Shown: in pieces, positions 1-41,016 of the stretch
Numbering within the stretch: position 1 is the first letter of the stretch
Layout of the letters: every line of letters begins with the position of its first letter
Assembly: GCA_903834625.1 (NCBI GenBank)
Contig: CAILJQ010000188.1
Coordinates: forward strand, 1,936-65,935
Direction of reading: 5' to 3'
Source: an uncultured Bacteroidota bacterium
GTDB lineage: Bacteria; Bacteroidota; Bacteroidia; UKL13-3
DNA length: 64,000 nt
Program-made: the position numbers and the translations under genes
Notes under the pieces: model-generated
Databases searched by the model: none
Told to the model about the DNA's origin: nothing
Seen by the model: only the letters and a program-made list of their open reading frames with translations

Positions 1-723
1 AAGAGTATTGGTCTAGAGTATTCAGTTCGTGATTTAGGAAACGTAACCATTACTGCGAACTACCAATTGCAGTTTGCAGATGGTACAGGTTCAAATGCAA
101 ACTCAAGTAGTGCATTGATTCAGGTAGGTTTGCCAACCTTACGTACTTTGATTCCTTTAGACTTTGATACCCGTAACACATTTAAGTTCATTTTTGATTA
201 CCACTATAAGAGAGGTAAAGATTATAACGGTCCGGTGGTTAACGGAAAGAAAATTTTCGAAAATGCTGGTTTCAACTTAAACTTCAGCGGATATTCAGGA
301 CGCCCTTACACACAAGACATGAATCCTACACCAGGCGGAGTTCAATCTGGCGTGGTAGTAAGAAGCCCAGTAAAAGGTACCATCAATGGAGCTAATTTAC
401 CACCTCAATTCAATTTAGACTTAAACGTAGATAAGAACTTTATCATTGAAAAGAAGAACATTGATGGTTCGGTAACTGCTTACCGTTTCCGTACCTTCTT
501 AATGGTTCAGAACTTATTAAATACTGCAAATGTGAACTCTGTATTCCGTTACACAGGTTCTGCATACAATGATGGATTCTTAGCCTCACCTGCTTCACAA
601 GAACAAGTTGAGACTGCAACCAATCAACAATCTTATATTGACTTGTATAATATTAGAATGGTGAATCCAGATCGTTTCGCCGGTCCAAGATTGGTACGTT
701 TAGGTATGGCTTTATATTTCTAA
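1..723 (+). CDS. C-terminal part of an outer-membrane beta-barrel protein (TonB-dependent-receptor-like); 5' end lies outside the window
   Basis: Frame 1 is open from base 1, so the track's TTG at 67 is internal. The protein ends ...RLVRLGMALYF with a terminal Phe, the usual barrel-closing signature. The next gene starts 27 bp downstream. Confidence 0.55.
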   Translation, partial: KSIGLEYSVRDLGNVTITANYQLQFADGTGSNANSSSALIQVGLPTLRTLIPLDFDTRNTFKFIFDYHYKRGKDYNGPVVNGKKIFENAGFNLNFSGYSGRPYTQDMNPTPGGVQSGVVVRSPVKGTINGANLPPQFNLDLNVDKNFIIEKKNIDGSVTAYRFRTFLMVQNLLNTANVNSVFRYTGSAYNDGFLASPASQEQVETATNQQSYIDLYNIRMVNPDRFAGPRLVRLGMALYF

Positions 724-750
724 GCCCATTTGTTTAACCAGAAAAAGTAA

Positions 751-3700
751 ATGACAATGAATAAGAATACTAACAGATTGATTAAATCAGCTTTCCTCGT
801 TCTGGTGGCGCTGCTTGCAGCACAAGCCTCCATTGCCCGTGAAAATATAGGCTTGCAAAAGAAAAGCAGCAAACCCACGCTTTTGAAATTGGGCGCTGGT
901 TGTGCACCTGCAACACAACAAAAGGACTTGGATTTGAACAACGTAAGAACAACCATTTTGAATGGGGGTGATATGTGGTGGAATATCCAAAATGCACGTT
1001 ATGAAATTCCTAAAGTAGAAACCGGACAAACCTCAAAGCACTCATTATTCTCTGGAGCCTTATGGATTGGTGGGGTTACACAAGGAAACTTACGTATTGC
1101 AGCTCAAACTTACCGTCAGAGCGGTAATGATTATTATCCAGGTGCCTTGCAAATAGATGGTTCAGCCTCTATTACAGCAACACGTTGTAAATATTACGAC
1201 AAAATCTGGAAAGTGACGCTTGCAGAAATTGAAGAATTTAGTGGAAACCCTAACAATTGGAACGATCCAATTGAAGCAATTGGTACTTGGCCAGGTAATG
1301 GTAATGGGGGAGATGGAGCATCTGGTGAAGCAGAATTCTTAGCACCATTCTACGATATGGACAATGATGGAAAATATGATCCAGGTAAGGGTGATTTCCC
1401 TTCATTTGACCAAAACAATGTTAACAATATTCCAGATATGATGTTGTATACCATATACAACGACAAAGGAAATATTCACTCTGAGTCTGAAGGATTACCA
1501 ATTGGTTTGGAATTACATACACAAAGTTTCGCGTATTCAACCAATGATGAAATTAATAACATGACCTTTTATCGTACAACTATTTACAATAGAAGTACTG
1601 AAACAATTGATAGTTGTATTTTTGGTCAGTGGGTAGATGCCGATTTGGGTAACTATTCAGACGACTACGTAGAATGTGATGTGAAGCGTAACTTAGGTAT
1701 TTGTTACAATGGTGATGATAATGATGAAGGTATTTTGGGTTACGGTTTGAACCCACCAAGCGTAGGTGTAAACTTCTTCGAAGGTCCTGCACGTATTGTT
1801 GGAAACGATACATCGGAAATTGGATTAACAAAGTTCGTTTATTACAACAATGACTTCTCAGTTACAGGTAATCCTAGCCGACCTGAGCATTACTGGAATT
1901 ACTTGAATGGTCGTTGGAAAGACGGTTTGAACATTACATACGGCGGTAACGGTAGAGGTGGCTCTGATACAGCAAGTTTTATGTTCCCTGGTAAAACAGA
2001 TCCTGTTGGTAGAGCAGATTGGACAGAGCGTATTGCTGGTAACAACCCTGGTGACAGACGTTTCCTTCAAACTGCTGGTACCTTTAGCTTATTGCCGGGT
2101 TCAAAAAATGAAGTAACAGTGGCGGTAGTTTGGGCAAGAGCTACAACAGGTGGTGCAACTGGTTCATTCAACTTATTAAAAGAAGCTTCTGATAAAGCTT
2201 ATGTGTTATACAAAAATAATTTCAACATTGTTGATGGTCCACGCGTTCCAAATTTGGAGGTGGTAGAACTAGACAAAGAATTAATTTTGAATATTACTAA
2301 CTACCAAACTGCTGAGCGTTATATCGACTCTTCTGCTGGTTTATGTAGCAATAAAACAATCTATAAATTCCAAGGATATCAAATCTTCCAATTGAAGAAA
2401 AATTCTATACCTTCTGATTTATACAATAAAGAAGAAGCCCAATTGGTTGCTCAGTGTGACGTGTTGGATGGAGTTGGATTGATGGTAAATATTATTAATG
2501 ATGCAGACCTAGGTTCTATCAAGAAAATCATGGTAAGTGGTGAAGATAAAGGTGTAAAACATAGTTTTAAAATTACCAAAGATGCCTTCTCTACATTATC
2601 AGATCAAACTTTAGTGAACTTCCAGAACTATTATTATTTGTTGGTTACTTATGCAAGTGCTACCAATTGTACAAATGATGCAACACAGTATTTAGCTGGT
2701 CGTAAAATGGTTGACGGTTCAGCTATTAAAGTTTGGGCAGGAACACCGCATAAACCAACACCACACCAACAAGGAACTCAGTTAAATTCTTTCTACGGTG
2801 ATGGTCCTGAAATTACACGTGTTGAAGGTATTGGTAACAGTGGTAATGCCTTGTTATTAACTCAAGAAACTATTGAAAAAGCTTTAATCGCTCCATATTA
2901 TGTACCAAATCCAACTTATGTTAGAGGTGCTGGTCCGGTTAAGATTAAAGTTATTGATCCATTTAAAGTTCCTTCTGCAGATTTTGAATTGCGTTTAATT
3001 GATAATTCAACATCAACTGTTAAAGGTGATACCTTAACAAGTAATTCTACTATCTGGGTATTAACCAACCTAACCACTGGAGCAAAAGATACAGGTGAAG
3101 CAAAAATCAATTCAAATAACGAGCAAATTTTTGCCGACTTAGGTTTGAGCATTACCTTGTTCCAAGTTGTTGGTCCTGGTAAAGCAGATGACGCAACTGA
3201 TGATTCAAATGGCTTTTTATCGGCTAGTATTGAATACTCAGACCCAACCAATCCATGGCTACCAGGTATTCCTGATGAATTAGCAGCGCTTGTGCCTTTC
3301 AATTGGATCAGGGCTGGAAATACAGGAACTCCTGGATTTACTAATCCATATGAGCATGATTTTGCAGATAACGGAAGAGCTATTGACCCAAGAAGACAAT
3401 ACAACAAAGTATTAGGTGGTACTTGGGCTCCATATTCACTTGCTGCAAGAGCTGTTTCTCCTACACCTACTTATGGTCCAGCTTGGGCTCCTGCAGGTAA
3501 TGGTGGATATTCATCTGATAATCCATTGTCTGACTTAAAATCTGTGTTGGTAGTAATTACTGCCGACAAAACTAAATGGTCGAGATGTGTGGTGTTAGAA
3601 TCAGGAGAAAATCCTGCTTTAACAATCGGTAATCAAGTAAAAATGAACCGCAGAAAATCTCCTTCAGTAGGTAAAGATGGTAAGCCAGATGGTACAGGTA

Positions 3701-4599
3701 CAGGTATGAGTTGGTTCCCAGGTTATGCTATTAACAAAGAAACTGGTGAGCGCTTAAATATCATGTTTGCGGAAGATTCTTCTTTGCCACTTGAAAATGG
3801 TACAGATATGATTTGGAATCCAACCAGCAATTTGGTGAAGAGTCAGGTAACTGGTATTGATTACTTAATGGGTGGTAAACACCACATTTACGTAATGGGT
3901 TCTAAACCTTTCCGTACAACTTCAACGGGTCCAATTTTATACAATGGTCCGCGTTATGATGAGTGTGCAAGCTACAGTGCATTATTTGATAAAATTGATG
4001 CCGGTGTGGGTGTTGCATTGAACAAACGTTATGTATTCTCTCAAGCTATGTGGGTAACCATGACATTGGTATCACCAAAAACATTCCTTGGAGACCATAC
4101 TACTAACGGAGGTATTCCATGTGAGGTGAAGATTAACTTAAATGTTAAACGTCCATACGCTTTCATTAACCAAACTGCTACAGATACGGTTGCTAATAAA
4201 GGAATTCCTTTGTATACCTTCTCAACTTCAAATATTGCTCCAAGTGTTGGGGGTAAAGAAACAGCCAAATCTGCATTAGATATGGTATCATTAACCCCTA
4301 ATCCTTACTACGCTTATGCTGGATATGAAGATCCAGGTAACCAATTAGACTCTAGGGTTAAGATAATTAACTTACCTACCAAATGCGTGGTTTCTATATA
4401 CACACAAGGCGGCTTCTTGGTTCGTAGAATTAAGAAAGATGATGATACCAAAACTTATTTGGATTGGGATTTGAAAAACGATGCAGGTGTTCCTATTGCC
4501 AGTGGTGTATATTTAGTACATGTATATGCAGATGGCATTGGCGAGCGAGTGATTAAATGGTTTGGTGTGATGCGTCCGGTTGACTTTGATACTTTCTAA
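751..4599 (+). CDS. Large (1282 aa) secreted/surface protein of unknown function with a C-terminal T9SS-CTD/FlgD-Ig-like beta-sandwich
   Basis: Signal peptide (FLVLVALLAAQASIA). Asp-rich Ca-binding-like loops (DMDNDGKYDPGKGD, NGDDNDEG). The last ~100 aa (LTPNPYY...VVSIYTQGGFLVRRI...WDLKNDAGVPIASGVYLVHVY) resemble a T9SS sorting domain and are followed by a short tail ending DFDTF. Confidence 0.6.
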   Translation: MTMNKNTNRLIKSAFLVLVALLAAQASIARENIGLQKKSSKPTLLKLGAGCAPATQQKDLDLNNVRTTILNGGDMWWNIQNARYEIPKVETGQTSKHSLFSGALWIGGVTQGNLRIAAQTYRQSGNDYYPGALQIDGSASITATRCKYYDKIWKVTLAEIEEFSGNPNNWNDPIEAIGTWPGNGNGGDGASGEAEFLAPFYDMDNDGKYDPGKGDFPSFDQNNVNNIPDMMLYTIYNDKGNIHSESEGLPIGLELHTQSFAYSTNDEINNMTFYRTTIYNRSTETIDSCIFGQWVDADLGNYSDDYVECDVKRNLGICYNGDDNDEGILGYGLNPPSVGVNFFEGPARIVGNDTSEIGLTKFVYYNNDFSVTGNPSRPEHYWNYLNGRWKDGLNITYGGNGRGGSDTASFMFPGKTDPVGRADWTERIAGNNPGDRRFLQTAGTFSLLPGSKNEVTVAVVWARATTGGATGSFNLLKEASDKAYVLYKNNFNIVDGPRVPNLEVVELDKELILNITNYQTAERYIDSSAGLCSNKTIYKFQGYQIFQLKKNSIPSDLYNKEEAQLVAQCDVLDGVGLMVNIINDADLGSIKKIMVSGEDKGVKHSFKITKDAFSTLSDQTLVNFQNYYYLLVTYASATNCTNDATQYLAGRKMVDGSAIKVWAGTPHKPTPHQQGTQLNSFYGDGPEITRVEGIGNSGNALLLTQETIEKALIAPYYVPNPTYVRGAGPVKIKVIDPFKVPSADFELRLIDNSTSTVKGDTLTSNSTIWVLTNLTTGAKDTGEAKINSNNEQIFADLGLSITLFQVVGPGKADDATDDSNGFLSASIEYSDPTNPWLPGIPDELAALVPFNWIRAGNTGTPGFTNPYEHDFADNGRAIDPRRQYNKVLGGTWAPYSLAARAVSPTPTYGPAWAPAGNGGYSSDNPLSDLKSVLVVITADKTKWSRCVVLESGENPALTIGNQVKMNRRKSPSVGKDGKPDGTGTGMSWFPGYAINKETGERLNIMFAEDSSLPLENGTDMIWNPTSNLVKSQVTGIDYLMGGKHHIYVMGSKPFRTTSTGPILYNGPRYDECASYSALFDKIDAGVGVALNKRYVFSQAMWVTMTLVSPKTFLGDHTTNGGIPCEVKINLNVKRPYAFINQTATDTVANKGIPLYTFSTSNIAPSVGGKETAKSALDMVSLTPNPYYAYAGYEDPGNQLDSRVKIINLPTKCVVSIYTQGGFLVRRIKKDDDTKTYLDWDLKNDAGVPIASGVYLVHVYADGIGERVIKWFGVMRPVDFDTF

Positions 4600-4624
4600 T
4601 ATTAACCTGTAAAAAAAATTGAAC

Positions 4625-5761
4625 ATGAAGAGAGATATAATAAAATTTGGTTTGATGGGTTTGCTCCTGTTTTCTGCGGATGCTTTTGCAGGAAATCCAG
4701 ACCGATCTGGTGGTGCAGGTGCCACACAACTTACCATAAATCCATATGCCCGTTCATCTGGTTCTGGAGGTTCTAACTCTGCGTCATTGAAAGGCGTTGA
4801 AGCTTTTAACTTAAACATTGCAGGTTTGGCTTTTACACAAAAGACAGATATCGTTTTTTCACGTGTGAGTTATTTGCAAGGTTCTGGAGTTAACATCAGC
4901 AATATTGGTTTGGCTCAAGCCGTTGGCGAAAATGGTAATGGTGGTGTAATTGGTATTGGAGTAGCTTCTTGGGATTTTGGTAGTATTCCAATTACTACGT
5001 ATGATAATCCAGATGGTACATTGCCTACCTTTAGTCCGCAAATTCTCAATTTTGGTGCATCTTATTCAAAGAAATTCTCTAATAGCATCAGTGGTGGTTT
5101 CATGATACGTTTGGTGTCTGAAGGTATTCAAGATGTTAAGGCAAGAGGTACTGCTTTTGATTTTGGTGTTCAATACCAAACTACTTTAAAGAATGCAAAA
5201 AAAGGGGCTGCTAAAATTAAGAAAGATGATTTTCACTTAGGTATTTCGGTAAGAAATATCGGTGCGGATATGAAGTATACTGGTTCTGGATTGTCTTTCC
5301 GTTCTATCAATGCTCAAACAGGTGCAGATCGTAAAGCATATTTCGCGGCTGATAAGTTTAACTTGCCAACCTTAGTAAATATTGGTTTAGGTTATGATAT
5401 GCGTTTAGATGGAAAAGAAGCAACCACCTACTATCACAGATTAACCGGTTCATTTAACTTTAACTACAACGCCTTTCAATCTAACGTAGTTGCCTTAGGT
5501 GCTGAATACGCCTATAAAGAAACAGCTATGTTGCGTGTTTCATACCAAATAACTGGCGATGAACAATTGTTCAGTAAAAATATGGCTGATCCATTATACA
5601 GCAATCCAGTATATGGTTTTTGGGGTGGAGCTACTTTCCAAGTGCCAGTTTCTAAAAATGGTACTTCAATGGCAATTGATTACTCTTATGCTCCAACCAG
5701 AATTTTTAATGGCATGCATACAATTGGTATAAGATTAACTGTTGGAGGTAAAAAGGGATAA
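4625..5761 (+). CDS. PorV/PorQ-family-like outer-membrane beta-barrel protein
   Basis: ATG at 4625; the track's 4619 start is a TTG. Signal peptide LLLFSADAFAG. The N-terminal GAGATQLTINPYARSSGSGG...NIAGLAF resembles the conserved PorV N-terminal motif. The remainder has an alternating beta-strand pattern. Confidence 0.5.
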   Translation: MKRDIIKFGLMGLLLFSADAFAGNPDRSGGAGATQLTINPYARSSGSGGSNSASLKGVEAFNLNIAGLAFTQKTDIVFSRVSYLQGSGVNISNIGLAQAVGENGNGGVIGIGVASWDFGSIPITTYDNPDGTLPTFSPQILNFGASYSKKFSNSISGGFMIRLVSEGIQDVKARGTAFDFGVQYQTTLKNAKKGAAKIKKDDFHLGISVRNIGADMKYTGSGLSFRSINAQTGADRKAYFAADKFNLPTLVNIGLGYDMRLDGKEATTYYHRLTGSFNFNYNAFQSNVVALGAEYAYKETAMLRVSYQITGDEQLFSKNMADPLYSNPVYGFWGGATFQVPVSKNGTSMAIDYSYAPTRIFNGMHTIGIRLTVGGKKG

Positions 5762-5792
5762 TATTTTTTTACTATATTTGAATCATATTTAG

Positions 5793-5830
5793 GAAACGTT
5801 CCGCCATGTGCGGAACGTTTCTTTTATTTT
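5793..5830 (+). terminator. Rho-independent terminator after the PorV-like gene
   Basis: Perfect 12-bp stem GAAACGTTCCGC (5793-5804) / GCGGAACGTTTC (5810-5821), loop CATGT, followed by TTTTATTTT. Confidence 0.8.
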
Positions 5831-5859
5831 TAACCGAGTTAGCAAACAAATCGATTAAT

Positions 5860-6333
5860 ATGGCTGATATTAATTTTGTCACAAAAGAAGGTCTGGAAAA
5901 ATTACAGGCCGAGTTGTATGATTTGAAATATGTACAACGTCCGTTTATTTCCAAACAAATTGCCGATGCAAGAGATAAAGGTGATTTAAGCGAAAATGCA
6001 GAATACCATGCTGCCAAGGAAGATCAGGGTTTAATGGAGGCTAAGATTGCCAAAATGGAAGACCTGATTTCCAAATCTAGGATCATTGATGAGAGCAAGT
6101 TAAATACCAGCATGGTAATGATGCTTACTCGAGTGCGCGTATTGAACCACAATTCAAATAAGGAAATTTGGTATACTTTGGTGAACGAGAAGGAAGCTGA
6201 TTTAAAGACAGGTAAAATATCTTTTAAATCACCTATTGGTTTAGGATTGATGAATAAAAAGGTAGGAGAAATTGCAGAGGTAGTGGTGCCAGCAGGCAAA
6301 ATTAAATTAGAGATTTTAGAAATCACCCTGTAA
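5860..6333 (+). CDS. greA: Transcription elongation factor GreA
   Basis: MADINFVTKEGLEKLQAEL...DLSENAEYHAAKEDQ is the GreA coiled-coil signature. The size (157 aa) fits. The ATG at 5860 is preferred because the track start at 5806 lies inside the upstream terminator. Confidence 0.9.
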   Translation: MADINFVTKEGLEKLQAELYDLKYVQRPFISKQIADARDKGDLSENAEYHAAKEDQGLMEAKIAKMEDLISKSRIIDESKLNTSMVMMLTRVRVLNHNSNKEIWYTLVNEKEADLKTGKISFKSPIGLGLMNKKVGEIAEVVVPAGKIKLEILEITL

Positions 6334-6335
6334 CA

Positions 6336-6740
6336 ATGCCTAGTATTTTTACAAGAATTGTTAAAGGCGAAATACCTTGTTACAAGGTAGCTGAAACAGA
6401 TAAATACCTTGCCTTTTTAGATATTCGTCCGCTTACAAAAGGACACACTTTGGTTATTCCCAAAGAAGAAACTGATTATATTTTTGACCTAGAAGATGCT
6501 GAATTGGCAAATCTTCATGTGTTTTCAAAAAAAGTGGCAATGGCAATTCAAAAAACCATTGCATGCACTCGTGTAGGGGTTTGTGTGATGGGACTTGAAG
6601 TACCGCATGCGCACATTCATTTAATTCCTTTCACGCAAATGGAAGAGATGAATTTTGCCAATCCCAAACTACAATTAGAAAGCAATGAAATGCAGGAGAT
6701 AGCTAATCTTATACAATTAGCATTTGAAAAAGATGCTTAG
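6336..6740 (+). CDS. HIT-family (histidine triad) nucleotide hydrolase
   Basis: HAHIHLIP matches the HxHxHxx triad motif. 134 aa. Confidence 0.85.
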   Translation: MPSIFTRIVKGEIPCYKVAETDKYLAFLDIRPLTKGHTLVIPKEETDYIFDLEDAELANLHVFSKKVAMAIQKTIACTRVGVCVMGLEVPHAHIHLIPFTQMEEMNFANPKLQLESNEMQEIANLIQLAFEKDA

Positions 6741-7342
6741 GATTTCTTTTTTACTTTAGACGGATTTTGATTTACAAAGGCTTCCCAACTGGAGGCCTTT
6801 TTCTTTGCAGGTATTTTGCTTTTAACTGTTTTAGCCGCAGGTATGGCTAATTGATATTGGGTGAAATGGCAAAAAGCTGCTGCCAACCCATCCGTTGCGT
6901 CGAGGTATTTAGAATCGAACTCAAATTTAAGTTGCTGCTGGAGCATACTGGCTACTTGTTCTTTGCTCGCATTTCCATTTCCAGTGATGGCCAATTTGAT
7001 TTTTTTTGGCGCATACTCTGCTACGGTTAATTCTCTGCTCATAGCGGCTGCAATAGCCACTCCTTGCGCTCTTCCTAGTTTGAGCATACTTTGTACATTC
7101 TTGCCAAAAAAAGGCGCTTCAATGGCCAATTCATCTGGATGAAACTCATCTATAAGACCCACGGTGCGTTCGAATATCTTTTTTAATTTGAGGGCGTAGT
7201 CTTCGTATTTATCTAATTTTAGCACACCCAGGGTTAATACAACAGCCTTTTTACCTGTGGTTTGAATGATTCCATACCCCATCACAGTAGTTCCAGGGTC
7301 GATGCCAAGGATGATTCTTTCTTTGATTGCTGCAGCCGACAT
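6737..7342 (-). CDS. ruvC: Holliday junction resolvase RuvC
   Basis: N-terminal ILGIDPGTTVMGYGII and the overall RuvC pattern. The 3' end overlaps the HIT gene by 4 bp (convergent). Confidence 0.85.
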   Translation of the reverse strand: MSAAAIKERIILGIDPGTTVMGYGIIQTTGKKAVVLTLGVLKLDKYEDYALKLKKIFERTVGLIDEFHPDELAIEAPFFGKNVQSMLKLGRAQGVAIAAAMSRELTVAEYAPKKIKLAITGNGNASKEQVASMLQQQLKFEFDSKYLDATDGLAAAFCHFTQYQLAIPAAKTVKSKIPAKKKASSWEAFVNQNPSKVKKKS

Positions 7343-7407
7343 GTAAATCTGATTTGGTTTAGGTGTTTGGTATGCGTTATTTTGTCAAACATAGTTAAAC
7401 GCTGCAA

Positions 7408-9488: not shown

Positions 9489-9757
9489 TAGCTGAATTAG
9501 ATGATGTAGAATACGAAATTCTCAACTGTTTATATTTTGTTGAGCCGTTTGAAAAATTGTTGGAGGAGCTAAATTTTCCATCAAATATTATTGCCGATGT
9601 ATTAAAAACATTGATCCAAAAAAAGTTGGTAGTAGCCATGAAATGGGATGAACAAACTCAGGATTATAAACGCAGTTTTATTTATGATTCCGACAACATG
9701 CATGCATACTCATATTTGGCTACCAAAGAAGGTTTGCTGGCACACAACAGCAGATAA
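9485..9757 (+). CDS. Small (90 aa) conserved hypothetical protein coupled to the GT2 gene
   Basis: ATG 9485 overlaps the GT2 stop (ATGA). No recognisable motif. Confidence 0.45.
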   Translation: MIAELDDVEYEILNCLYFVEPFEKLLEELNFPSNIIADVLKTLIQKKLVVAMKWDEQTQDYKRSFIYDSDNMHAYSYLATKEGLLAHNSR

Positions 9758-9762
9758 TAGCT

Positions 9763-13626: not shown

Positions 13627-15729
13627 TTATTTAACAATCTTTCTATTGAGCACTTTTCCGTCTTTTTCTATTTGTAAAATGTACAACCCTTTTGGCAGTT
13701 CGCTTAAATCTATTTGCATACTTTGATTGCCTTTGTGGGTTTGGATATTACCTTGAACCAAAAGCTTTCCACTCAAATTATATACGTATACATTGGTTAA
13801 TCCAGCAACTTGTAGGTTTAAATCAATGGTTAACCATTCTGTTACGGGTACAGGATATATTTTTACCTCCATTCCTTCAAATTGGTTCAGACCGTTAGCT
13901 AAATTAACCTGAACCGAATCACAACGCATAGCAGAGCAAGAGTCGGTTTCATTGAGTATGTTCAAGCAAACATAATAGTTGCCAGATGCGCCATAAGCGT
14001 GTGAGGTATTGGCCCCTGTTGCAGTGCTGCCATCACCAAAATTCCAAGTGCTACTCACATTGTTTCCAGAGAAACTATTAAAGGTAAAATTGGCAGGATT
14101 GGTTGGGTCAGCTATACTTTCAAAATCTGCTGCACAGGTTTGATTGCCCATGATAACTCCAGGGAAAAGAATGCTTACACAAAAAACGCTGTAACAATTG
14201 GTGTCTACACTGCTAGTAACATACAAACAGGCAGTATGTAATCCAGGAGTTAAAAAGGTGTGTTCTGCATTGGTTGATGTTTTGGTATTTCCACCATCAA
14301 ACTCCCATCTGTAAATTAAATTTGAGCCAGATGAACGGTTCACAAATCGATAAGTTCCGCTTAGTCCAACTCTGGCATATTCAAATACTGCCACGCATGG
14401 TGTAGGAGCAGTTGCGCCTGTAGTAAAGGTTCTGCAAGTAGTACTACGACATAATGTGTCTGAACCAGAAATTTTATAAATAGTTAAACAAACTGTTTTA
14501 GAACCCAATGTGCTGAAGTAATGAATAGGACTGCAATTGTCGGAGCTAGTGCCATCTCCAAAGGTATAAATACAGCGAGTATATGTTCCTGTTGAGGTAT
14601 TGCTAAACCTAACATAGTGTGGGTTCGAACCGATACTATCTGATTTAATTACATTAAAAGAAGCATTACATGCAGTAGTACCACCAATTACAATCGTTTG
14701 ACAAGTGGTTTGACTGCAGGTAGAATCCAAATTGGTAACAGTTAAGCAAACAGTATAAGTTCCGTTTGTAGCATAGGTATGCGTTTGGAACCTACCCACA
14801 CCTGTAGTACCATCACCAAAAGTATATCTGTATATTAAATTCGAGTTGTTGGTAGAGGCTTCAAAAGAAAATGTTCTAGGTACACTGTTGCTCATCATTT
14901 TACTGAAGTTGGCATTACATGGAGTTTCTCCCACCATTATACTGTCACATTTAGTTTGGGTACAACTAGAATCCTTCTTGGTTATTTTTAAACAAACTTT
15001 GTATTTACCACTTGATGCATAGGTGTGAAATGTATTGCGACCGTCGCTACTTGTTCCATCGCCAAATGTCCATAAGTATCTATAATTTGTATCATTTACC
15101 GCTGGTATGAAATATGCTTTTTTTGCATTAGATGGATCTGGTGTTTTGCTCCAACTGGCATTGCAAACAGGAGCTTCAATTTTTAATGTATCACATTTTT
15201 GATATGTACAACTTGAGTCTTTTTTGGTAACTCTTAAACATACATTGTATTTTGTGTAGGCTGCAAAAACATGACTGCTTACGCGGTTATTTGAAGATGT
15301 GCCATCACCAAATGTGTACAGATAATGATAATTGGTATCATTTAATACGGCTTCGAAAGTGTATTTCTTAGGAATTAAGGGGTCCTTCACACGACTGTGC
15401 ATTGCATTGCAAGGGGTACTTGTTGGTGCTATGTATATAGTATCACAAAAACTGCTGGTACAACTCGAATCTGTTTTTATAATGGTTAAACAAACTAAAT
15501 AGAAACCAGCAGAATTAAATGTTTTGGTTGGGTTCATAGCATCTGAACCTGTTCCATTTCCAAACGACCAATAAGAAGTAAATGGACTGCCCGTAGAGGT
15601 ATTTGTAAAGGAAACTGTTTTGGTAGCATTGTTCACCGTAGCGGTAAACGAAGCCACACAGGCAACTTGCGCTTTAGATGAAAAACTTAAAAGAAATAGA
15701 ACGGTTAGGAGAGTGTATATTTTTTTCAT
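13627..15729 (-). CDS. Secreted protein with seven Cys-rich PKD-like repeats and a T9SS type-A C-terminal sorting domain
   Basis: Signal peptide MKKIYTLLTVLFLLSFSSKAQ. Seven ~90-aa modules each contain (F/W)xFG(D/N)G(T/S) and a CL...DSSC...C pattern. The C-terminus is IYPVPVTEWLTIDL...LPKGLYILQIEKDGKVLNRKIVK. Confidence 0.8.
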   Translation of the reverse strand: MKKIYTLLTVLFLLSFSSKAQVACVASFTATVNNATKTVSFTNTSTGSPFTSYWSFGNGTGSDAMNPTKTFNSAGFYLVCLTIIKTDSSCTSSFCDTIYIAPTSTPCNAMHSRVKDPLIPKKYTFEAVLNDTNYHYLYTFGDGTSSNNRVSSHVFAAYTKYNVCLRVTKKDSSCTYQKCDTLKIEAPVCNASWSKTPDPSNAKKAYFIPAVNDTNYRYLWTFGDGTSSDGRNTFHTYASSGKYKVCLKITKKDSSCTQTKCDSIMVGETPCNANFSKMMSNSVPRTFSFEASTNNSNLIYRYTFGDGTTGVGRFQTHTYATNGTYTVCLTVTNLDSTCSQTTCQTIVIGGTTACNASFNVIKSDSIGSNPHYVRFSNTSTGTYTRCIYTFGDGTSSDNCSPIHYFSTLGSKTVCLTIYKISGSDTLCRSTTCRTFTTGATAPTPCVAVFEYARVGLSGTYRFVNRSSGSNLIYRWEFDGGNTKTSTNAEHTFLTPGLHTACLYVTSSVDTNCYSVFCVSILFPGVIMGNQTCAADFESIADPTNPANFTFNSFSGNNVSSTWNFGDGSTATGANTSHAYGASGNYYVCLNILNETDSCSAMRCDSVQVNLANGLNQFEGMEVKIYPVPVTEWLTIDLNLQVAGLTNVYVYNLSGKLLVQGNIQTHKGNQSMQIDLSELPKGLYILQIEKDGKVLNRKIVK

Positions 15730-15831
15730 AATGCCGTGATTTAGATTTGAGTAGATCCAAAATTTGACACAGCAAGTTAGCTCAAAAAATGACAATAATG
15801 TAAATGAAAACTTAATATCTTCTTAAATCTC

Positions 15832-18039
15832 CTATTCAACAAAGTCCTCTTTTTCTGTTTGTCCAGCAGAGAATTTTTCGCAATCGAGTTCAATGCTCAG
15901 CGGACTTTGTGGAGGAATCCATTCGTTTACGATGGGCAATAAATTGGGTGTTGCACATACTTTCTGCATATAAGTGGCCCAAATAGGCATTGCCATTGCC
16001 GAGCCTGAACCTAAATCCATCGACCTAAAATGAATGGCACGATCTTCCCAGCCAACCCAACAGCCAGAAACAAGGGTAGGGGTGATACCAATGAACCATC
16101 CATCACTGTAATTTTGGGTTGTACCTGTTTTACCTCCAACCGCTCCAGGAATTTTATACAAATACTTTACTTTGGCAGCTGTACCATTTGTTGTAGTTTT
16201 TTCAAGCATCTTACACATCACATAGGCTGTTTGTTCACTCAGCGCTTCTTGGGTTACAGGAAGGTTTTCAAATATTACATTTCCATTTTTATCTAAGATG
16301 CGTGTGAGGTAGGTAGGTTTTATCCAAACGCCTTTATTTGCAAATGTAGAGAAGGCACCTACCATCTCGTAAACAGAAATATCTGCAGTACCTAGTGCAG
16401 AAGAAGGATAGGGCTCAATTTTGCTGGTAACACCCATTTTATGTGCCAATTCAATTACATTCTTCATACCACCTTCACCCAATAATTTGAGTACATTCAA
16501 GCAAACCAAGTTCATTGAGAATTGTAAACCTCTGTACATGGTCATTTCAGGTGTACTGAATTTATCGTCTGCATTATCTGGATTGTAATCTGGGTAACCC
16601 TCAAAGCTCACCGGTTTATTTGGAATAATGGTACAAGGAGAAAAGCCATTATCAACTGCCACCGTATAAACAAAAGGTTTAAAGGTTGAACCAACTTGCC
16701 TTTTAGCCGTAATGTTCACATGGTCGTATTTAAAATATTTATAATTATGTCCGCCAACCCAAGCCTTTATTTTTCCTGTTTGAGGATCCATACTCATGAA
16801 GCCACATTGCATAAAATACTTGTAGTATTTGATGCTATCCATTGGAGTCATTGTGGTATCAATCTCTCCACGGGTATAACTGAATACACGCATTTTTACT
16901 GGCGTATTAAATTCCTTTTGTATTTCACTTTCTTTTTTGCCTAGTTCTTTGGCAATTCGGTACCTATCACTTCTTTTCATTCCAGAAACCAGCACTTCTT
17001 TAAAGGCTCCCCAAGGTTCTCTTCCTTTCCAATGGGCAAAGAATTTTTTCTGTTGGTCTTTTAATTGTTCCTCAACTGTTTGTTCTGCCATTTGCTGCAT
17101 GGTAGGATTGATGGTGGTATAAATTTTTAATCCATCCTTATAAAGATTGTATCCATTTTCCTCGCACCAGTTAAGGAGTTCCATACGCAAGGTTTCTCTG
17201 AAATAGGTTGCTAATCCTTCGTTGTGACTTTCCTCTTGGAAGTTGAGAACAATGGGTTCAGACTTTAAAATATCAAAAGAATCGCTGGTGATATAACCGG
17301 CTTTTTCCATTTGTTTTAATACAGTATTACGTCTGTTTAGAGCATTGGCAGGTTTACTGATTGGAGAATATCTGGTTGGTGCTTTTAGCATTCCCACAAG
17401 CACGGCCGCTTCTTTCACATTGAGATCGCGCGGAGATTTTCCAAAAAATGTTTTTGCAGCACTTCTAATACCAAATGAATTACTTCCAAACTCTACGGTG
17501 TTAAAGTACATGGTCATAATTTCATCTTTGGTATAACGCTGTTCAATAAGCACCGCAGTTATCCATTCTTGCAATTTGGTTTTGGTTTTTTGAACCACGT
17601 TATTGAAACGTTTACGTGGATATAAATTTTTAGCAAGCTGCTGTGAAATGGTACTCCCTCCTTGGTGTTTGCCCAATAGGTTATAAATAACAATGGTAAA
17701 AAGCCTGCTATTATCAATTCCGCTGTGCTCATAAAATCGAATATCTTCTGTGGCAATAAGGGCATTAATTAAGTTTGGACTTAACTCCTCATAACTGGCA
17801 TTACTTCTGTTTTGAAGGTAGTACTTACCTAAAAGCGTATTGTCTTCTGCATATATTTCACTGGCCAATTGGGTTGTAGGATTCTCAAGTTCTTCAATAG
17901 GTGGTAATTGTCCGAACCAACCCATTGCTACGGCAGCAACCAAAAATGCCAAAAGGGTCAATCCACCAAAGGCCATTACCCAAATCCATTTAATAAATTT
18001 CCAATACGGACTTTTTGTAAAATATTCTTTTAGGCTCAT
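15832..18039 (-). CDS. mrcA: Bifunctional penicillin-binding protein 1A (GT51 transglycosylase + transpeptidase)
   Basis: ATEDIRFYEHSGID and GGSTISQQLAKN (GT51 motifs). STFKPF (SxxK). N-terminal membrane anchor. Confidence 0.9.
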   Translation of the reverse strand: MSLKEYFTKSPYWKFIKWIWVMAFGGLTLLAFLVAAVAMGWFGQLPPIEELENPTTQLASEIYAEDNTLLGKYYLQNRSNASYEELSPNLINALIATEDIRFYEHSGIDNSRLFTIVIYNLLGKHQGGSTISQQLAKNLYPRKRFNNVVQKTKTKLQEWITAVLIEQRYTKDEIMTMYFNTVEFGSNSFGIRSAAKTFFGKSPRDLNVKEAAVLVGMLKAPTRYSPISKPANALNRRNTVLKQMEKAGYITSDSFDILKSEPIVLNFQEESHNEGLATYFRETLRMELLNWCEENGYNLYKDGLKIYTTINPTMQQMAEQTVEEQLKDQQKKFFAHWKGREPWGAFKEVLVSGMKRSDRYRIAKELGKKESEIQKEFNTPVKMRVFSYTRGEIDTTMTPMDSIKYYKYFMQCGFMSMDPQTGKIKAWVGGHNYKYFKYDHVNITAKRQVGSTFKPFVYTVAVDNGFSPCTIIPNKPVSFEGYPDYNPDNADDKFSTPEMTMYRGLQFSMNLVCLNVLKLLGEGGMKNVIELAHKMGVTSKIEPYPSSALGTADISVYEMVGAFSTFANKGVWIKPTYLTRILDKNGNVIFENLPVTQEALSEQTAYVMCKMLEKTTTNGTAAKVKYLYKIPGAVGGKTGTTQNYSDGWFIGITPTLVSGCWVGWEDRAIHFRSMDLGSGSAMAMPIWATYMQKVCATPNLLPIVNEWIPPQSPLSIELDCEKFSAGQTEKEDFVE

Positions 18040-20696
18040 TTTTTTGGTTTGAGGAGTTCTTCTTGTTTTTTGTAAAAATCGGCAAATTTTTCCACTTTCT
18101 TTTCTTTCAATACTTGTCTGAAGTTTTTCGTGGAAATGATATACTCAGGAGTAGTATCGGTATAGGATAATTTTTTTGTTTTAAAGTCGGTGGCACGAAC
18201 TGTTTTTAAGTACTCGTATGCCGACTTTTGGTTCGGAAATTCTCTTACAGTTATTAATTGAAACCCGTCATTACTCATGATAGCATTTACCCTCAAATTA
18301 TTTTCAGAGGCATATGCTTCATTGAAGGCTGTGTATTCGGAAACAAACATGTCGAAATCAAGTTTGGTGTTTTTTATGGCTAGTACGTAGTAATAGGGTG
18401 TTTCTGTTTCTAAATCAAATTCTGCCAAATTTTGCGAGCTATCATTGCCCATAAATGCCACCTTTTTTTCTTGTCGGTTCAGCACTTCTAAATAATCTTC
18501 GGCTGTTTTACCAACGTCTAATCCTTTGTATGTTTCACTTAATTCTTTGAGTGATTTTTTAAAAGCATCTTTGTCGCCTAACCTACCTATGCATAGGGAA
18601 TTTAATAAGTCAATTTTTGGCTTCATCGTATTACCCGGAAATTGTTTATCAATTTCTGGTTTCATGGCCATGGCCTCTTTGTAGTTGCCATCAGTGTATG
18701 CCTGATACATTTTTTCATAGGCAATTAATAATTGCTTGTTACCTGTGGTTTCGCTGGAGGAGATGGGTTTATTTTGCACCAATAAACTGAGATAGTGGTC
18801 AGGATATTTTTGAATAAGGTTGAACTTATTGTTATCTGCAACTTTGGTGTTTTTTAAATCTGTATTTGATTTGTATAAATAGTAAAATGACTCTGGTTCA
18901 TATTCACTGTTTGGATATTTTCCTTGCAGAATTTCAAAATACTTTTTGCTTTCATTGGCGTTTTTCAATCGGTCGTAATACATTACCCCTAAGTTGTGCA
19001 ATGATTCAAGCATTTTTTGGTTCGAACGCAATTTTTGTTCCTTGCTGAATGGGACATTTTTAATCCACTTGTCCTTATCAGCATTCCCTGTTGAAACATC
19101 CAATTTAGTATCTGGAATTTCTTGTTCCTCTGTTTTTATTTTGTCCTTTGGTTTATCAGTGGAAGTAGTGTCGGTACCAGAAGTTGCATCTGATTTTACT
19201 TTTTCTTTCGCAGCCAATCTCCAATAGTCTTCATTTTGCCTTTGGCCCCATTTCTTATTAGAGAAAAATTCTGCAGCACCTGCATTCACAAGTGTAGGAT
19301 TGTAAAAGTACCAGCTATTGTCTGTTCCCCCCGGAATATTGATGGCAGGAGCGGCAATTAGGTTTTGGTTATTGGCCAAGCTTGCCTGCATTTTTGCCTT
19401 TTTCTTTGCTTCTTTTGCAGCAATTTCTTCTAGCCTTTTTTGTTCGCTTATCCAACCATTTACTTTACGTTCTAATTCGTCTTTGCTTAGTAATGAAAGA
19501 CGTTGAAGGGAGTCTTCTGTTTCATAAACATTGATATTTAAAATCAACTCAGACAATACGGTTTTGGTTTCTTTGATAGACTCAAAATTTTTATGTTTTT
19601 TATCTAAAAACTGAACAGTACTATCATAGTAAGCTTGAGCATTTTTATATTCTTTTCTATCAAAAAATAACTTCGCCAATTCATAATGACTCAAAGCTTT
19701 TTGGTTTTGATTTTTTGTGCTGTTAGCAACAGACTTTCTGAAGTCTTTGATGGCTTCAGGTTGGTTTTTTATAGCAAGATCTATCCTGCCTAATTCATAA
19801 TATATTTGGTCGAGATAATCGATGTTTTTCTCATCAGCCGCCATGCGCTTGAGATTCTTGCGCACGCGCTCTACAGATTTTGGGTCTTTGAGGTCATAAA
19901 TTCCTGTGAGAGCAATATTCGCATTAAAGGCAAAGTCGTAAGGAGGTATATAGGAAATTACTTTATTGAAAAAGTAACTTGCTTCTGGTTTTTTGTTTGC
20001 CTGCAAACACAGTTGACCAAGGATATAATTGTACCTAATTTTTTGGTCTTTGGTGAGTTTTCCTTTCAGAGCCATTTTAAGGTTATCAATAGCGGTAGTA
20101 TATTTATCTTGCTTGATATTAATATCTGCAGCAGTAGCATAAATAAGAGCGATATCTTCTTTTCGGAAATTCTTTTTAGCTAACAATAATCCCATCAAGG
20201 CTTCGGCTTCACCTAATTTATTTAAGCCAACATAGTTCCTGGCTATATAACAAGTACTGGCATTGGAATAGGCTCCATCTTTGTATTTACCCAACATAAA
20301 CTGAAAGGTTTCAATCGAGGCGAAGTAGTCTTGTTTATAAAATCTACATTCCCCAATTCCATAATATGCATCATCCGTAAACGAGCCTATGGTATGCATT
20401 TGTATGGTTTTTGAGAACTTTTTGATGGCTTCATCTAATACATTTCCCGCTGCCTTGGCAGATTCTGGCGTACCCAATGGAAACACATCTAATATTTTAC
20501 TAAAGTTATTTATATGTGAGTTCTGTAATTGCGTTACTGCATCTAGAAGTTTTTGTTGCCCGTTGAAGTACACGTTAAAATGCCCGGTAAGGGTATGGAA
20601 TTTTCTATTAAGCCATTTATCCTTCGTGGGATTGCAACCCCATGTCCAGATTAAACCGGTGAGGATGAAAATAATTATGTTCCTGTTTCTGTACAA
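18036..20696 (-). CDS. TPR-repeat lipoprotein, probable T9SS component PorW/SprE
   Basis: Lipobox (WTWGC). The N-terminal NRKFHTLTGHFNVYFNG resembles the SprE/PorW N-terminal motif. Multiple TPR-like helices, 886 aa. An ATGA overlap links it to the downstream PBP1A start. Confidence 0.5.
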   Translation of the reverse strand: MYRNRNIIIFILTGLIWTWGCNPTKDKWLNRKFHTLTGHFNVYFNGQQKLLDAVTQLQNSHINNFSKILDVFPLGTPESAKAAGNVLDEAIKKFSKTIQMHTIGSFTDDAYYGIGECRFYKQDYFASIETFQFMLGKYKDGAYSNASTCYIARNYVGLNKLGEAEALMGLLLAKKNFRKEDIALIYATAADINIKQDKYTTAIDNLKMALKGKLTKDQKIRYNYILGQLCLQANKKPEASYFFNKVISYIPPYDFAFNANIALTGIYDLKDPKSVERVRKNLKRMAADEKNIDYLDQIYYELGRIDLAIKNQPEAIKDFRKSVANSTKNQNQKALSHYELAKLFFDRKEYKNAQAYYDSTVQFLDKKHKNFESIKETKTVLSELILNINVYETEDSLQRLSLLSKDELERKVNGWISEQKRLEEIAAKEAKKKAKMQASLANNQNLIAAPAINIPGGTDNSWYFYNPTLVNAGAAEFFSNKKWGQRQNEDYWRLAAKEKVKSDATSGTDTTSTDKPKDKIKTEEQEIPDTKLDVSTGNADKDKWIKNVPFSKEQKLRSNQKMLESLHNLGVMYYDRLKNANESKKYFEILQGKYPNSEYEPESFYYLYKSNTDLKNTKVADNNKFNLIQKYPDHYLSLLVQNKPISSSETTGNKQLLIAYEKMYQAYTDGNYKEAMAMKPEIDKQFPGNTMKPKIDLLNSLCIGRLGDKDAFKKSLKELSETYKGLDVGKTAEDYLEVLNRQEKKVAFMGNDSSQNLAEFDLETETPYYYVLAIKNTKLDFDMFVSEYTAFNEAYASENNLRVNAIMSNDGFQLITVREFPNQKSAYEYLKTVRATDFKTKKLSYTDTTPEYIISTKNFRQVLKEKKVEKFADFYKKQEELLKPKK

Positions 20697-22517: not shown

Positions 22518-23696
22518 ATGCAGCCAAATAACAAAAAGATTTTCAGATACTTAATTCCGGTTTTTTTGATTCTTTGCTATATTGCTTACAGCAGTGTTGC
22601 AGTTTTTGGTCAGCATGAGAGTCATGAAGCTACCGCAGATTCCCTAACAACCACCACCCATTCAGAAGAAGCTCATGGGGCTGAGGCACATGATGCGAAC
22701 GCCCATGGAGCAGAAGTGCATGAAGAAGGCAAAGTGGATGCCGGTAAATTAATCATGGAACACATTGCAGATGCGCATGATTGGCATATTGCAACAGTGG
22801 GACATTCTCACATTTCTATTCCTTTGCCTGTAATTATTAGCGATGACCATGGATTAAAAATATTTTCATCATCTCGTTTTGAACATGGGCATGCTACTTA
22901 TGAAGGATACAAATTAGAAGAAGGTAAAATTGTAGCGGTAAATGCAGATGGTTCAATCAATGAACATGCTTCATTTTTGGATTTATCAATTACCAAGAAT
23001 GTAGCAAGTATGCTTATTTCTGTTATTTTCTTGTGCTGGATTATGCTTTCAGTTGCTGGTCACTATACCCGCAACAAAGGAAAGGCCCCAAAAGGAATGG
23101 CCAATTTGATTGAAACATTGATCATTTTTATTCGTGATGAGGTAGCTAAACCAAGTATTGGACCTAAATACGCTAAATTCCTTCCTTATTTATTAACTAT
23201 CTTCTTTTTCATTTTTATCAATAACTTGTTCGGTTTGATCCCATTTTTTCCGGGAGGAGCTAACGTAACAGGAAATATAGCAGTAACATTGGTATTAGCT
23301 ATTTTCACTTTTGTGATTACTTCTTTTAATGGCAACAAAAGTTACTGGGGACATATTTTCATGCCACCAGGGGTTCCTAAAGCATTGTGGATTTTGTTGA
23401 TTCCTATTGAAATCATTGGAATGTTGAACAAGCCTATTGTATTGATGATTCGTTTGTTTGCGAATATTACCGCAGGTCACATTATTATCTTAGGATTTTT
23501 CTCACTTATATTCATTTTCGGTGCAATGAACCAAACGTTAGGTTTGGGCGTGTCTGTATTATCAGTTGCGTTTACCACCTTTATGAATTTCCTTGAATTG
23601 TTAGTTGCCTTTTTACAGGCATATGTGTTCACGTTGCTGTCAGCCTTGTATTTTGGTTCAGCAGTAGAAGAACATCACCACGAAGAACATCATTAA
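22518..23696 (+). CDS. atpB: F0F1 ATP synthase subunit a, with His-rich N-terminal insert and C-terminal tail
   Basis: Conserved LMIRLFANITAGHII (essential Arg) and LQAYVFTLLSALYF. The N-terminal extension is typical of Bacteroidota. Confidence 0.9.
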   Translation: MQPNNKKIFRYLIPVFLILCYIAYSSVAVFGQHESHEATADSLTTTTHSEEAHGAEAHDANAHGAEVHEEGKVDAGKLIMEHIADAHDWHIATVGHSHISIPLPVIISDDHGLKIFSSSRFEHGHATYEGYKLEEGKIVAVNADGSINEHASFLDLSITKNVASMLISVIFLCWIMLSVAGHYTRNKGKAPKGMANLIETLIIFIRDEVAKPSIGPKYAKFLPYLLTIFFFIFINNLFGLIPFFPGGANVTGNIAVTLVLAIFTFVITSFNGNKSYWGHIFMPPGVPKALWILLIPIEIIGMLNKPIVLMIRLFANITAGHIIILGFFSLIFIFGAMNQTLGLGVSVLSVAFTTFMNFLELLVAFLQAYVFTLLSALYFGSAVEEHHHEEHH

Positions 23697-30355: not shown

Positions 30356-31609
30356 TTATTTGTATTGTTGCAATTTAGCTTCCATACTCAAAGTAGTATG
30401 TGGCACTGCACGCAAACGTTCTTTTGAAATAAGTTTACCAGTAACCTTACAAATACCATACGTTTTGTTCTCAACGCGAATAAGGGCATTCTCTAGGTTT
30501 TCTATAAACTTACGTTGACGGGCAGCTAACTGGCTCAAGTATTCCTTCTCAGAAGTAGAAGCACCATCATCTAATTTGTTGTATGAGTTATCTGTATCTG
30601 CACCACCATTAATTCCTGGGTTTTGCATTTGCTCTAGAAGATTGTTTAACTCTTCTTTGGCAACAGATAATTTTTTATTGATTAACTCTTTAAATTCAGC
30701 TAAATCGGCATCGCTGTATCTTTTGGTTTCTGCAGTTGCTGCCATTGAATCATCTGGCTTTTCTTCAAAAACAGGAGTTTTGCTCACTACTGGTTTCAAA
30801 GGTTTTGGTGGTGTAGAAGGCTTTTTAGGAGCAACAACTACAATCTTCTTTGCCACAGGAGCCTTTTGAACCACTGGCTTTACAACAACCTTTACAACAG
30901 GTTTAGCAACTGGCTTAACAACAGGTTTAACAACTGGCTTAACAGCTATTGGCTTTTTCGCAATAGGTTTAGCAACCACTGCCACTTTTTTTGATACTAC
31001 CTTTTTAGCAGGTGATTTTTTAGCTACAGGTTTTGCGGGTGTAGCTTTTTTAGCCACTACTTTTTTAACTGCAACTGTTTTCTTCGCTACAGGCTTTTTC
31101 GCAACTGGTTTTTTTGCAATTGGCTTCTTAGCTACAGGTTTCTTCGCTACAGGCTTTTTCGCTACAGGCTTTTTCGCAACTGTTTTTTTTGCAATTGGCT
31201 TCTTAGCTACAGGTTTCTTAGCTACAGGCTTTTTCGCAACTGGTTTCTTCGCAACAGGCTTCTTAGCAACAGGCTTTTTCGCAACAGGCTTTTTCGCTAC
31301 TGGTTTTTTTGCAACAGGCTTCTTAGCAACAGGCTTCTTAGTAACAGGCTTTTTCGCCACAGGCTTCTTAGCCACAGGCTTCTTGGCCACAGGCTTTTTA
31401 GCCACAGGCTTTTTAGCTATTGCTTTTTTCGCTACAGGTTTCTTAGCCACCGGCTTGGCTGCCACAGCTTTTTTAACAATTTTCTTTGGTGCTGCTTTTT
31501 TAGCAATAGGCTTTTTAGGAGCTACTTTGGCAGCTTTTTTAGGTGCAGTTTTTTTTACTGCTTTTTTAGGAGCAGATTTCACTGCGCTTTTGGTAATTTT
31601 CTTCGCCAT
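30356..31609 (-). CDS. DksA/TraR-family protein fused to a 288-aa Lys/Ala/Pro-rich histone-H1-like N-terminal extension
   Basis: The C-terminal 129 aa (from internal Met at 30745) contain YGICKVTGKLISKERLRAVPHTTLSMEAK, typical of the Bacteroidota TraR/DksA protein found between ileS and lspA. The upstream 288 codons are a stop-free run of KKPVA-type pentapeptides. Confidence 0.7.
   Translation of the reverse strand: MAKKITKSAVKSAPKKAVKKTAPKKAAKVAPKKPIAKKAAPKKIVKKAVAAKPVAKKPVAKKAIAKKPVAKKPVAKKPVAKKPVAKKPVTKKPVAKKPVAKKPVAKKPVAKKPVAKKPVAKKPVAKKPVAKKPVAKKPIAKKTVAKKPVAKKPVAKKPVAKKPIAKKPVAKKPVAKKTVAVKKVVAKKATPAKPVAKKSPAKKVVSKKVAVVAKPIAKKPIAVKPVVKPVVKPVAKPVVKVVVKPVVQKAPVAKKIVVVAPKKPSTPPKPLKPVVSKTPVFEEKPDDSMAATAETKRYSDADLAEFKELINKKLSVAKEELNNLLEQMQNPGINGGADTDNSYNKLDDGASTSEKEYLSQLAARQRKFIENLENALIRVENKTYGICKVTGKLISKERLRAVPHTTLSMEAKLQQYK
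31070..31470. repeat. Tandem 15-bp repeat array (unit about GCTACAGGCTTTTTC on the + strand, which is AKKPV on the coding strand)
   Basis: At least 25 consecutive near-identical 15-bp units are visible. More degenerate units extend to about 30890 and about 31560. Confidence 0.85.
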
Positions 31610-40904: not shown

Positions 40905-41016
40905 AATGCAGCAAAAGTAGCTAAAAATGCGCATTGTCAAATGCGTAAAAACCAAGAGCTAATATTTACAACATTCTTGCATGAATATCGTTTATTTGTG
41001 GTTGTTTAAAGATTTC

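Follow-up and report, generated by a model that had tools for sequence, protein, structure and literature searches.

A conserved three-gene locus of uncultured Bacteroidia combining a TonB-dependent-receptor-type protein, a large unannotated secreted protein and a PorV-like outer-membrane barrel

The DNA analyzed here (the window) is a stretch of 64,000 nucleotides from contig CAILJQ010000188.1 of an uncultured Bacteroidota bacterium of the UKL13-3 lineage (assembly GCA_903834625.1), at the left end of which three genes follow one another on the forward strand. According to the open reading frame (ORF) list of the window these are ORF1, which is cut by the left edge of the window and has its stop codon at 723, ORF2 (751..4599) and ORF3 (4625..5761), with gaps of 27 bp (724–750) between ORF1 and ORF2 and 25 bp (4600–4624) between ORF2 and ORF3. 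The part of ORF1 within the window (1..723) represents the C-terminal 240 codons of a 1257-residue protein and ends in the manner of an outer-membrane protein (…RLVRLGMALYF). ORF2 starts with an ATG codon and encodes a secreted protein of 1282 residues from an unannotated family, while ORF3 encodes a 378-residue outer-membrane barrel of the PorV/PorQ family, predicted to possess 14 strands. All three products carry Sec signal peptides, which were read directly from their sequences. With 1282 and 378 codons in DNA of 38% GC, ORF2 and ORF3 cannot be chance products.

The array is closed by an intrinsic terminator on the same strand (5791..5833), consisting of a hairpin (5791–5823) with a 14-pair stem, 7 GC pairs and a 5-nt loop, followed by the T-rich tail TTATTTTT. 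This is one of only two terminator-like sites across 6.4 kb. The locus therefore has the form given to it by the original prediction, which was made from the letters of the sequence and described three same-strand genes with gaps of these lengths ending at a terminator. For the third gene, the quoted peptides GATQLTINPYARSSGSGG and NIAGLAF were found in the translation; however, the length of 379 residues given for its product needed correction to 378. ORF3 is listed from a TTG codon (4619..5761, 380 residues), with the ATG at 4625 being the likely true start because it agrees with the 378-residue gene call in a 99%-identical Logan contig (L001).

The 240-residue fragment of ORF1 in the window gave, by itself, no match in Pfam or NCBIfam. 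The whole gene was found in contig L001 (99% identical; 6200–9973) and in the NCBI metagenome-assembled genome (MAG) L002 (Bacteroidetes bacterium B1(2017)), from which the full product of 1257 residues was recovered. The full-length protein of L001 consists of a signal peptide, a CarboxypepD_reg domain (residues 26–106), a Plug domain (residues 137–219) and approximately 1030 further residues ending in ALYF. The Plug match (PF07715) reached 41.9 bits (cutoff 23.9) and lies in a region beyond the window. These domains bear out the earlier suggestion, drawn from the C-terminus, that the first gene encodes a protein of the TonB-dependent-receptor type. The plug motif FRGxRxDGTAYYIDGVRV was invariant in 39 relatives of ORF1, which fits a working gated channel, and the Prokaryotic Genome Annotation Pipeline (PGAP) names such relatives 'TonB-dependent receptor' or 'carboxypeptidase regulatory-like domain-containing protein'. 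No match to TonB_dep_Rec (PF00593) was found in ORF1, with this domain being present in three of the 120 relatives listed, and the SusC/RagA models of NCBIfam gave no match to ORF1 at E<=0.1. When an ORF1 profile was compared to PDB sequences, the sole match was to the CarboxypepD_reg domain (SusC N-terminal, 9hfj_A, E=0.051).

ORF3 was assigned to the PorV/PorQ family by three kinds of comparison. Its product matched the NCBIfam model of the family (NF033709) with 114.9 bits (cutoff 90) over model positions 3–323 of 326; relatives of ORF3 scored 108–156 bits and bear the PGAP name 'PorV/PorQ family protein'. A profile of 50 ORF3 orthologs searched against PDB sequences retrieved only PorV of F. 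johnsoniae (6h3i_F, E=2.4e-12). An AlphaFold2 (AF2) model of ORF3 (predicted local distance difference test (pLDDT) 70.3, predicted template modeling score (pTM) 0.68) also had F. johnsoniae PorV as its best Foldseek matches (8gl6_F and 6h3i_F; E 6e-11 to 2e-10, TM 0.60–0.66), followed by FadL, with the matches also including the FadL/PorV-like barrels of the β-barrel assembly machinery (BAM) complex (9n2d_B, 9hiv_F, 9hjm_F). Both 8gl6 and 6h3i are SprA complexes, and in the solved complex 8gl6 PorV binds the C-terminal domains (CTDs) of substrates. The hidden Markov models (HMMs), the profile and the fold agree in placing ORF3 where the original prediction had placed it.

The scores of ORF3 on the equivalog models of this family were far lower, at 54.7 bits for PorV (NF033710, cutoff 250; relatives 50–75 bits) and 49.1 bits for PorQ (NF033711, cutoff 220), while the PorV2 model (NF052325, cutoff 325) gave no match to ORF3 of the window at E<=0.1 and 31–34 bits for its relatives. 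The PorP/SprF model TIGR03519 gave sub-threshold scores of about 19 bits with the relatives. As ORF3 passes the family model and remains far under the equivalog cutoffs of PorV, PorQ and PorV2, it is placed by these scores in a putative fourth subfamily of PorV-like barrels distinct from all three, and not with canonical PorV.

It should also be noted that in one locus (L058) a second PorV-family gene (22935..23585, +) lies 9 kb downstream of the three genes. It is annotated as 'putative type IX sorting system protein PorV2' and scores 277 bits on NF052325 from a fragment of 215 residues, which makes the ORF3 of that locus an additional paralog. No paper on PorV2 was found in the literature, the text 'PorV2' in PMC10994853 being merely a superscript reference number. 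In a distant relative (L083, 7016..8548, +) the ORF3-type barrel bears a C-terminal extension of >130 residues in which a Ser/Thr/Lys-rich linker leads into a further region truncated where the contig ends. Should this extension be a periplasmic anchoring domain, it would speak for ORF3 as a static anchor and less for a shuttle that moves.

The middle gene, ORF2, encodes a protein with a Sec signal peptide (residues 1 to ~29) without an adjoining lipobox. Its body has no family match in Pfam or NCBIfam, an exact-sequence lookup found no match, and no match to PDB sequences was obtained even with a 65-sequence family profile. The family itself is large, with at least 2516 clusters at 90% identity and, at 50% identity, 7353 clusters with E<=1e-3, of which 2512 had E<=1e-30. 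All members examined were MAG or metagenome proteins, with none from a cultured organism turning up in the cluster lookups. PGAP calls the relatives 'hypothetical', and some are titled 'T9SS type A sorting domain-containing protein', T9SS being short for type IX secretion system.

Per-block conservation and invariant columns delimit an N-terminal domain of ORF2 (residues ~45–480; 883..2190, +), where the protein is conserved best, with values of 0.62–0.81 per 40-residue block, apart from residues 161–200 at 0.44. It carries invariant Asp, Asn, His, Glu, Arg and Trp residues together with Asp-rich loops, and the loops noticed in the original prediction, DMDNDGKYDPGKGD and YNGDDNDEG, were located in the translation. 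Calcium is a probable ligand of this domain, and glycans are a possible one. Residues 30–1200 gave an AF2 model (pLDDT 80.6, pTM 0.65) that is mostly β and multidomain, and a Foldseek search of PDB and viral models gave partial matches of low TM to the β-supersandwich N-domains of glycoside hydrolase (GH) families GH94, GH116 and GH65 and to Fn3 arrays. These model-based matches amount to no more than a faint hint of glycan binding. One homolog of 1687 residues (L086, 7861..12924, +) contains an inserted β-propeller segment of the BNR/Sortilin-Vps10 type (PF14870, E=1.8e-13, residues 996–1088).

The size of ORF2 (~1280 residues) and the order of the genes, in which that of a PorV-family barrel comes after that of a large protein with a CTD, mimic porU-porV, and the 64-kb window contains neither a canonical porU-porV pair nor any PorV-family gene other than ORF3. 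It could be argued on these grounds that the locus is the usual porU-porV pair, the receptor gene in front of it being unrelated. However, no PorU or Peptidase_C25 match was found in ORF2 at E<=0.1 in Pfam and NCBIfam, nor in 34 members of its family, and no gingipain or PorU structure is among the best 50 Foldseek PDB matches listed for its model. Together with the absence of a PDB sequence match, the distance of ORF3 from the PorV equivalog cutoff and the PGAP names of the relatives, which are neither PorU nor PorV, this leaves such a pair effectively refuted and extremely improbable. The first reading of the sequence, which had found the middle gene unlike PorU, is upheld by these searches. 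Other candidates in the window were also rejected as porU-porV: the genes for a 1116-residue and a 417-residue protein at 30356–34967 are IleS and a histone-like/DksA fusion, and the other large ORFs are housekeeping genes. The fusion (30356..31609, −), situated just downstream of ileS, is unusual in joining a Lys/Ala-rich N-terminal half resembling histone H1 (Hc2-type) to a DksA/TraR-type C-terminal domain.

Within the T9SS, PorV is recognized as the general shuttle, PorQ-PorZ and PorV-PorU as attachment pairs, and PorP/SprF barrels as partners of type B cargo. Two T9SS proteins were identified in the window, namely the periplasmic lipoprotein PorW/SprE (18036..20696, −; NF052312, 569.8 bits, cutoff 250) and PorZ (40981..43320, +; NF052228, 595.6 bits, cutoff 260). 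Downstream of PorW/SprE on the same strand lie a gene for PBP1A (15832..18039) and one for a 722-residue PKD-repeat protein (13627..15795) with a type A sorting domain (TIGR04183-positive). No PorQ-like gene adjoins the PorZ gene of the window, the next ORF encoding a zinc-type alcohol dehydrogenase/quinone reductase. Because the window encodes PorW/SprE, PorZ and type A cargo, a canonical T9SS is present in the genome.

A putative CTD of the PorZ/FlgD-Ig type was recognized in ORF2 at residues ~1178–1268 (4282..4554, +), in agreement with the original description of a C-terminal domain resembling T9SS sorting or FlgD-Ig domains. The HMM matches were weak though detectable (Pfam FlgD_ig, E=0.0038; positions 686–740 of the NCBIfam PorZ model, E=2.7e-4), and among 34 family members FlgD_ig matched 15 and Por_Secre_tail (PF18962) matched five. 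In BLASTP comparisons, the ORF2 CTD showed 37% identity over 54 residues to the CTD of the window's own PorZ (E=2e-6) and a poor match to the CTD of the ordinary type A cargo of the window (E=0.075). The ORF2 CTD thus appears closer to the retained CTD of PorZ than to that of ordinary type A cargo. After it comes a tail of 14 residues (WFGVMRPVDFDTF-type; 4555..4596, +), which reaches past the point where the PorZ and type A CTDs end and terminates in …KWFGVMRPVDFDTF. That this extra tail ends in Phe had been remarked upon before, and the C-termini of the 34 members give a consensus of …KWFGVMRxxDxDTF with a conservation of 0.71, the terminal residue being Phe or Tyr in all 34. The CTD and tail together are more conserved than the body of ORF2 (0.70 vs. 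0.62), which would be unexpected if the CTD were a discarded signal.

This last observation bears on the possibility that ORF3 is a dedicated shuttle and not an anchor, escorting ORF2 from the SprA translocon to a cleavage of its CTD, with ORF1 being just co-transcribed. Such a role would be in line with the PorV family being one of shuttles, with the cognate shuttles documented for type B CTDs (PMC12618676, PMC9143113), with the 'type A sorting domain' titles of some ORF2 relatives and with the PorZ gene of the window, which implies that an attachment complex exists. However, the better conservation of the CTD and tail, the resemblance of the CTD to a retained and not to a cleaved one, and the strict co-retention of ORF1, which speaks against mere co-transcription, make a shuttle quite unlikely.

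To what extent the three genes are inherited together was assessed in a scan of species-representative genomes, of which at least 580 encode a relative of ORF2. The best 80 were examined and all are Bacteroidia MAGs. Synteny was determined by tblastn with the three proteins, counting loci with enough flank, which amounted to about 75 at species level. The order and orientation of ORF1-ORF2-ORF3 was kept in every one of these except L051, at identities reaching down to 42% for ORF2, 37% for ORF1 and 38% for ORF3, so the loss of gene order among relatives that would have argued against a module was not seen. Four more distant contigs share the order, with ORF2 identities of 37–38% or having been found starting from ORF1. 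ORF2 occurs alone in L051 (9917..13747) and L087 (6203..9931), with both ORF1 and ORF3 absent nearby, and these solo homologs keep the CTD tail (…KWFGIMRQVDLDTF in L051).

In nearly all loci a 2-hydroxyacid dehydrogenase gene lies upstream and greA-HIT downstream. As these flanks are conserved along with the gene order, the three genes constitute a vertically inherited core feature and not a mobile island of the polysaccharide-utilization type. In the window, the longest ORF for greA (5806..6333, +) begins at an ATG within the terminator hairpin of the locus, a more plausible start being the ATG at 5860 (MADINFVTKEG…, 157 residues), as in the gene call of L002. It should also be noted that five of the contigs (L029, L033, L043, L067, and L076) bear the organism labels Comamonas, Bifidobacteriaceae, Bifidobacterium or Rhizobium despite their Bacteroidia-type locus and are probably mislabeled; 'Chitinophaga pinensis' labels on freshwater MAGs with the locus also look wrong.

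The fixed position from the 2-hydroxyacid dehydrogenase gene to greA-HIT and the housekeeping-like conservation could also mean that the locus encodes lineage-specific core machinery of secretion or of the envelope, such as an extra sorting/attachment complex or an outer-membrane biogenesis complex, and not a nutrient importer. ORF1 would then be a PorF-like barrel of the TonB-receptor type, joined by the PorV-like barrel ORF3 and by ORF2 as an enzyme or scaffold at the surface. PorF, a component of the T9SS, is similar to TonB receptors, co-purification with PorV is known for a TonB-dependent receptor (PMC8564354), NCBIfam already holds a further 'type IX sorting system' paralog in PorV2, and FadL/PorV-like barrels such as those matched by the ORF3 model also serve the Bacteroidota BAM complex (PMC12578637). 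On the other hand, the plug of ORF1 is invariant, whereas PorF has been reported to lack a Plug domain (PMC8564354), ORF3 is structurally nearer to PorV than to BamG, and ORF2 is found without adjacent partners in L051 and L087. A core-machinery role is considered unlikely.

From the observed gene structure, family assignments, synteny and conservation, we infer that the three genes form one outer-membrane module in which ORF3 would tether a T9SS-exported ORF2, perhaps in the service of the transporter ORF1, an interpretation to which we give slightly less than an even chance. All three products would enter the periplasm via Sec, and ORF1 and ORF3 would insert into the outer membrane as β-barrels. 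ORF2 is expected to fold in the periplasm and then to leave through the T9SS by means of its CTD. It would bypass the general PorV shuttle and cleavage by PorU, with the CTD being captured, uncleaved, by its cognate barrel ORF3. A CTD captured in this way would hold ORF2 non-covalently on the cell surface, in the manner known for PorU on PorV and for PorZ on PorQ. The precedent for these steps is that the CTD of PorU is retained on PorV and that of PorZ on PorQ, with cognate PorV-like barrels having been proposed to shield CTDs from cleavage (PMC10202324). Cognate barrels of the PorP/SprF type are encoded next door to type B cargo (PMC12618676, PMC9143113), and a link to receptors is known from C. 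hutchinsonii, in which the TonB-dependent receptor that co-purifies with PorV was described (PMC8564354).

The strict co-inheritance with a plug-bearing ORF1 suggests that the three proteins work as one complex, in the simplest form of which ORF2 would act outside the cell as a transporter's partner in capture or processing. In the most speculative step of this proposal, ORF2 would capture or process a substrate which ORF1 then imports, with ORF2 taking the place that a SusD-type lipoprotein has in SusC/D pairs. The original prediction had proposed a dedicated PorV-like partner for a single giant cargo, possibly anchored through the upstream barrel. Its observation is confirmed, each of its testable points having come out as proposed, and its interpretation is partly supported: anchoring through ORF1 found no support, the PorU-PorV and PorZ-PorQ precedent favoring ORF3 as the anchor.

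Several findings weigh against tethering by ORF3 and uptake through ORF1. Regarding export, ORF2 of the window has no TIGR04183 or PF18962 match and its CTD matches type A/T9SS models weakly. With regard to transport, comparison of the ORF1 family profile to PDB sequences revealed no solved TonB-dependent transporter to which the barrel is similar, and the sequence 'LQTVTVTF' at residues ~115–122 is suggestive of a TonB box of which the family consensus keeps just L..V. An Rfam scan upstream of ORF1 in L001, L018 and L082 detected no riboswitch, and no regulator hinting at a substrate was seen. The hint of glycan binding by ORF2 comes from Foldseek matches with TM <= 0.23. ORF2 is also about as conserved as GreA, with the module fixed among housekeeping genes, and a core role in the envelope or in secretion would explain this position and conservation no less well than the uptake of nutrients. 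Since ORF2 reaches the conservation of housekeeping genes in uncultured Bacteroidia that are abundant, its function likely matters for their physiology.

Literature searches on PorV-like paralogs, PorV2 and the link to TonB receptors returned precedents and no description of the module. Its parts are known in kind, namely a TonB-type receptor, a T9SS CTD protein and a PorV-family barrel, while their combination appears to be absent from the searchable literature. The combination takes in the distinct subfamily of ORF3, the tail of the CTD and the very large unannotated family of ORF2, which comprises thousands of clusters with neither a Pfam or NCBIfam model nor a solved structural analog. At its furthest, the proposal would be that of an undescribed surface uptake machine, in which a TonB-dependent transporter works, in place of a lipoprotein, with a T9SS-exported 1282-residue partner of new fold, held permanently on a private PorV-family barrel of a fourth type by an uncleaved PorZ-like CTD and aromatic-ended tail, as a core, vertically inherited trait of large lineages of uncultured freshwater and soil Bacteroidia. 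This fuller version is regarded as rather doubtful. If true, a fourth PorV-family subfamily serving one large cargo would extend to type A-like CTDs the principle that a cognate barrel protects and positions the CTD, and the locking of such a pair to a TonB-dependent-type receptor would tie secretion directly to import.

Among known systems, type B CTD cargo with PorP/SprF-like barrels (SprB-SprF; Fjoh and PG1035-type) is similar in that the cargo gene adjoins its own barrel gene (PMC12618676, PMC9143113). It differs in both components, as the barrel of ORF3 is of the PorV/PorQ family instead of PorP/SprF and the putative CTD of ORF2 is type A/PorZ-like instead of type B. SusC/SusD (RagA/RagB) systems share with the module the CarboxypepD_reg and Plug domains of ORF1 and a directly following gene for a surface partner, the surface location of ORF2 being predicted. 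However, ORF1 has no SusC/RagA match in NCBIfam nor profile similarity to a solved SusC/RagA barrel or plug, and ORF2 is not a SusD-like lipoprotein but a putative T9SS-CTD protein of 1282 residues, accompanied by a PorV-like barrel of its own. PorF (PG0534) and CHU_1606, the TonB-dependent receptor found to co-purify with PorV, are comparable as TonB-receptor-type outer-membrane proteins with a functional or physical link to a PorV-family protein and the T9SS (PMC8564354). Compared by description, PorF is a protein of ~90 kDa reported without a Plug (PMC8564354), whereas ORF1 has 1257 residues and an invariant plug.

The PorZ-PorQ and PorU-PorV pairs of Porphyromonas gingivalis likewise consist of a large T9SS-exported surface protein and a 14-strand barrel of the PorV/PorQ family, export in the case of the module being predicted. 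The putative CTD of ORF2 is of the PorZ/FlgD-Ig type and the adjacency of ORF2 and ORF3 resembles that of porU and porV. In contrast to PorU, ORF2 has no C25 sortase domain, and in contrast to PorZ, the PorZ model matches only its CTD and not its body, while ORF3 remains under the equivalog cutoffs of PorV, PorQ and PorV2. The module further differs from these pairs in carrying a conserved 14-residue tail after the CTD and a TonB-dependent-type receptor gene upstream.

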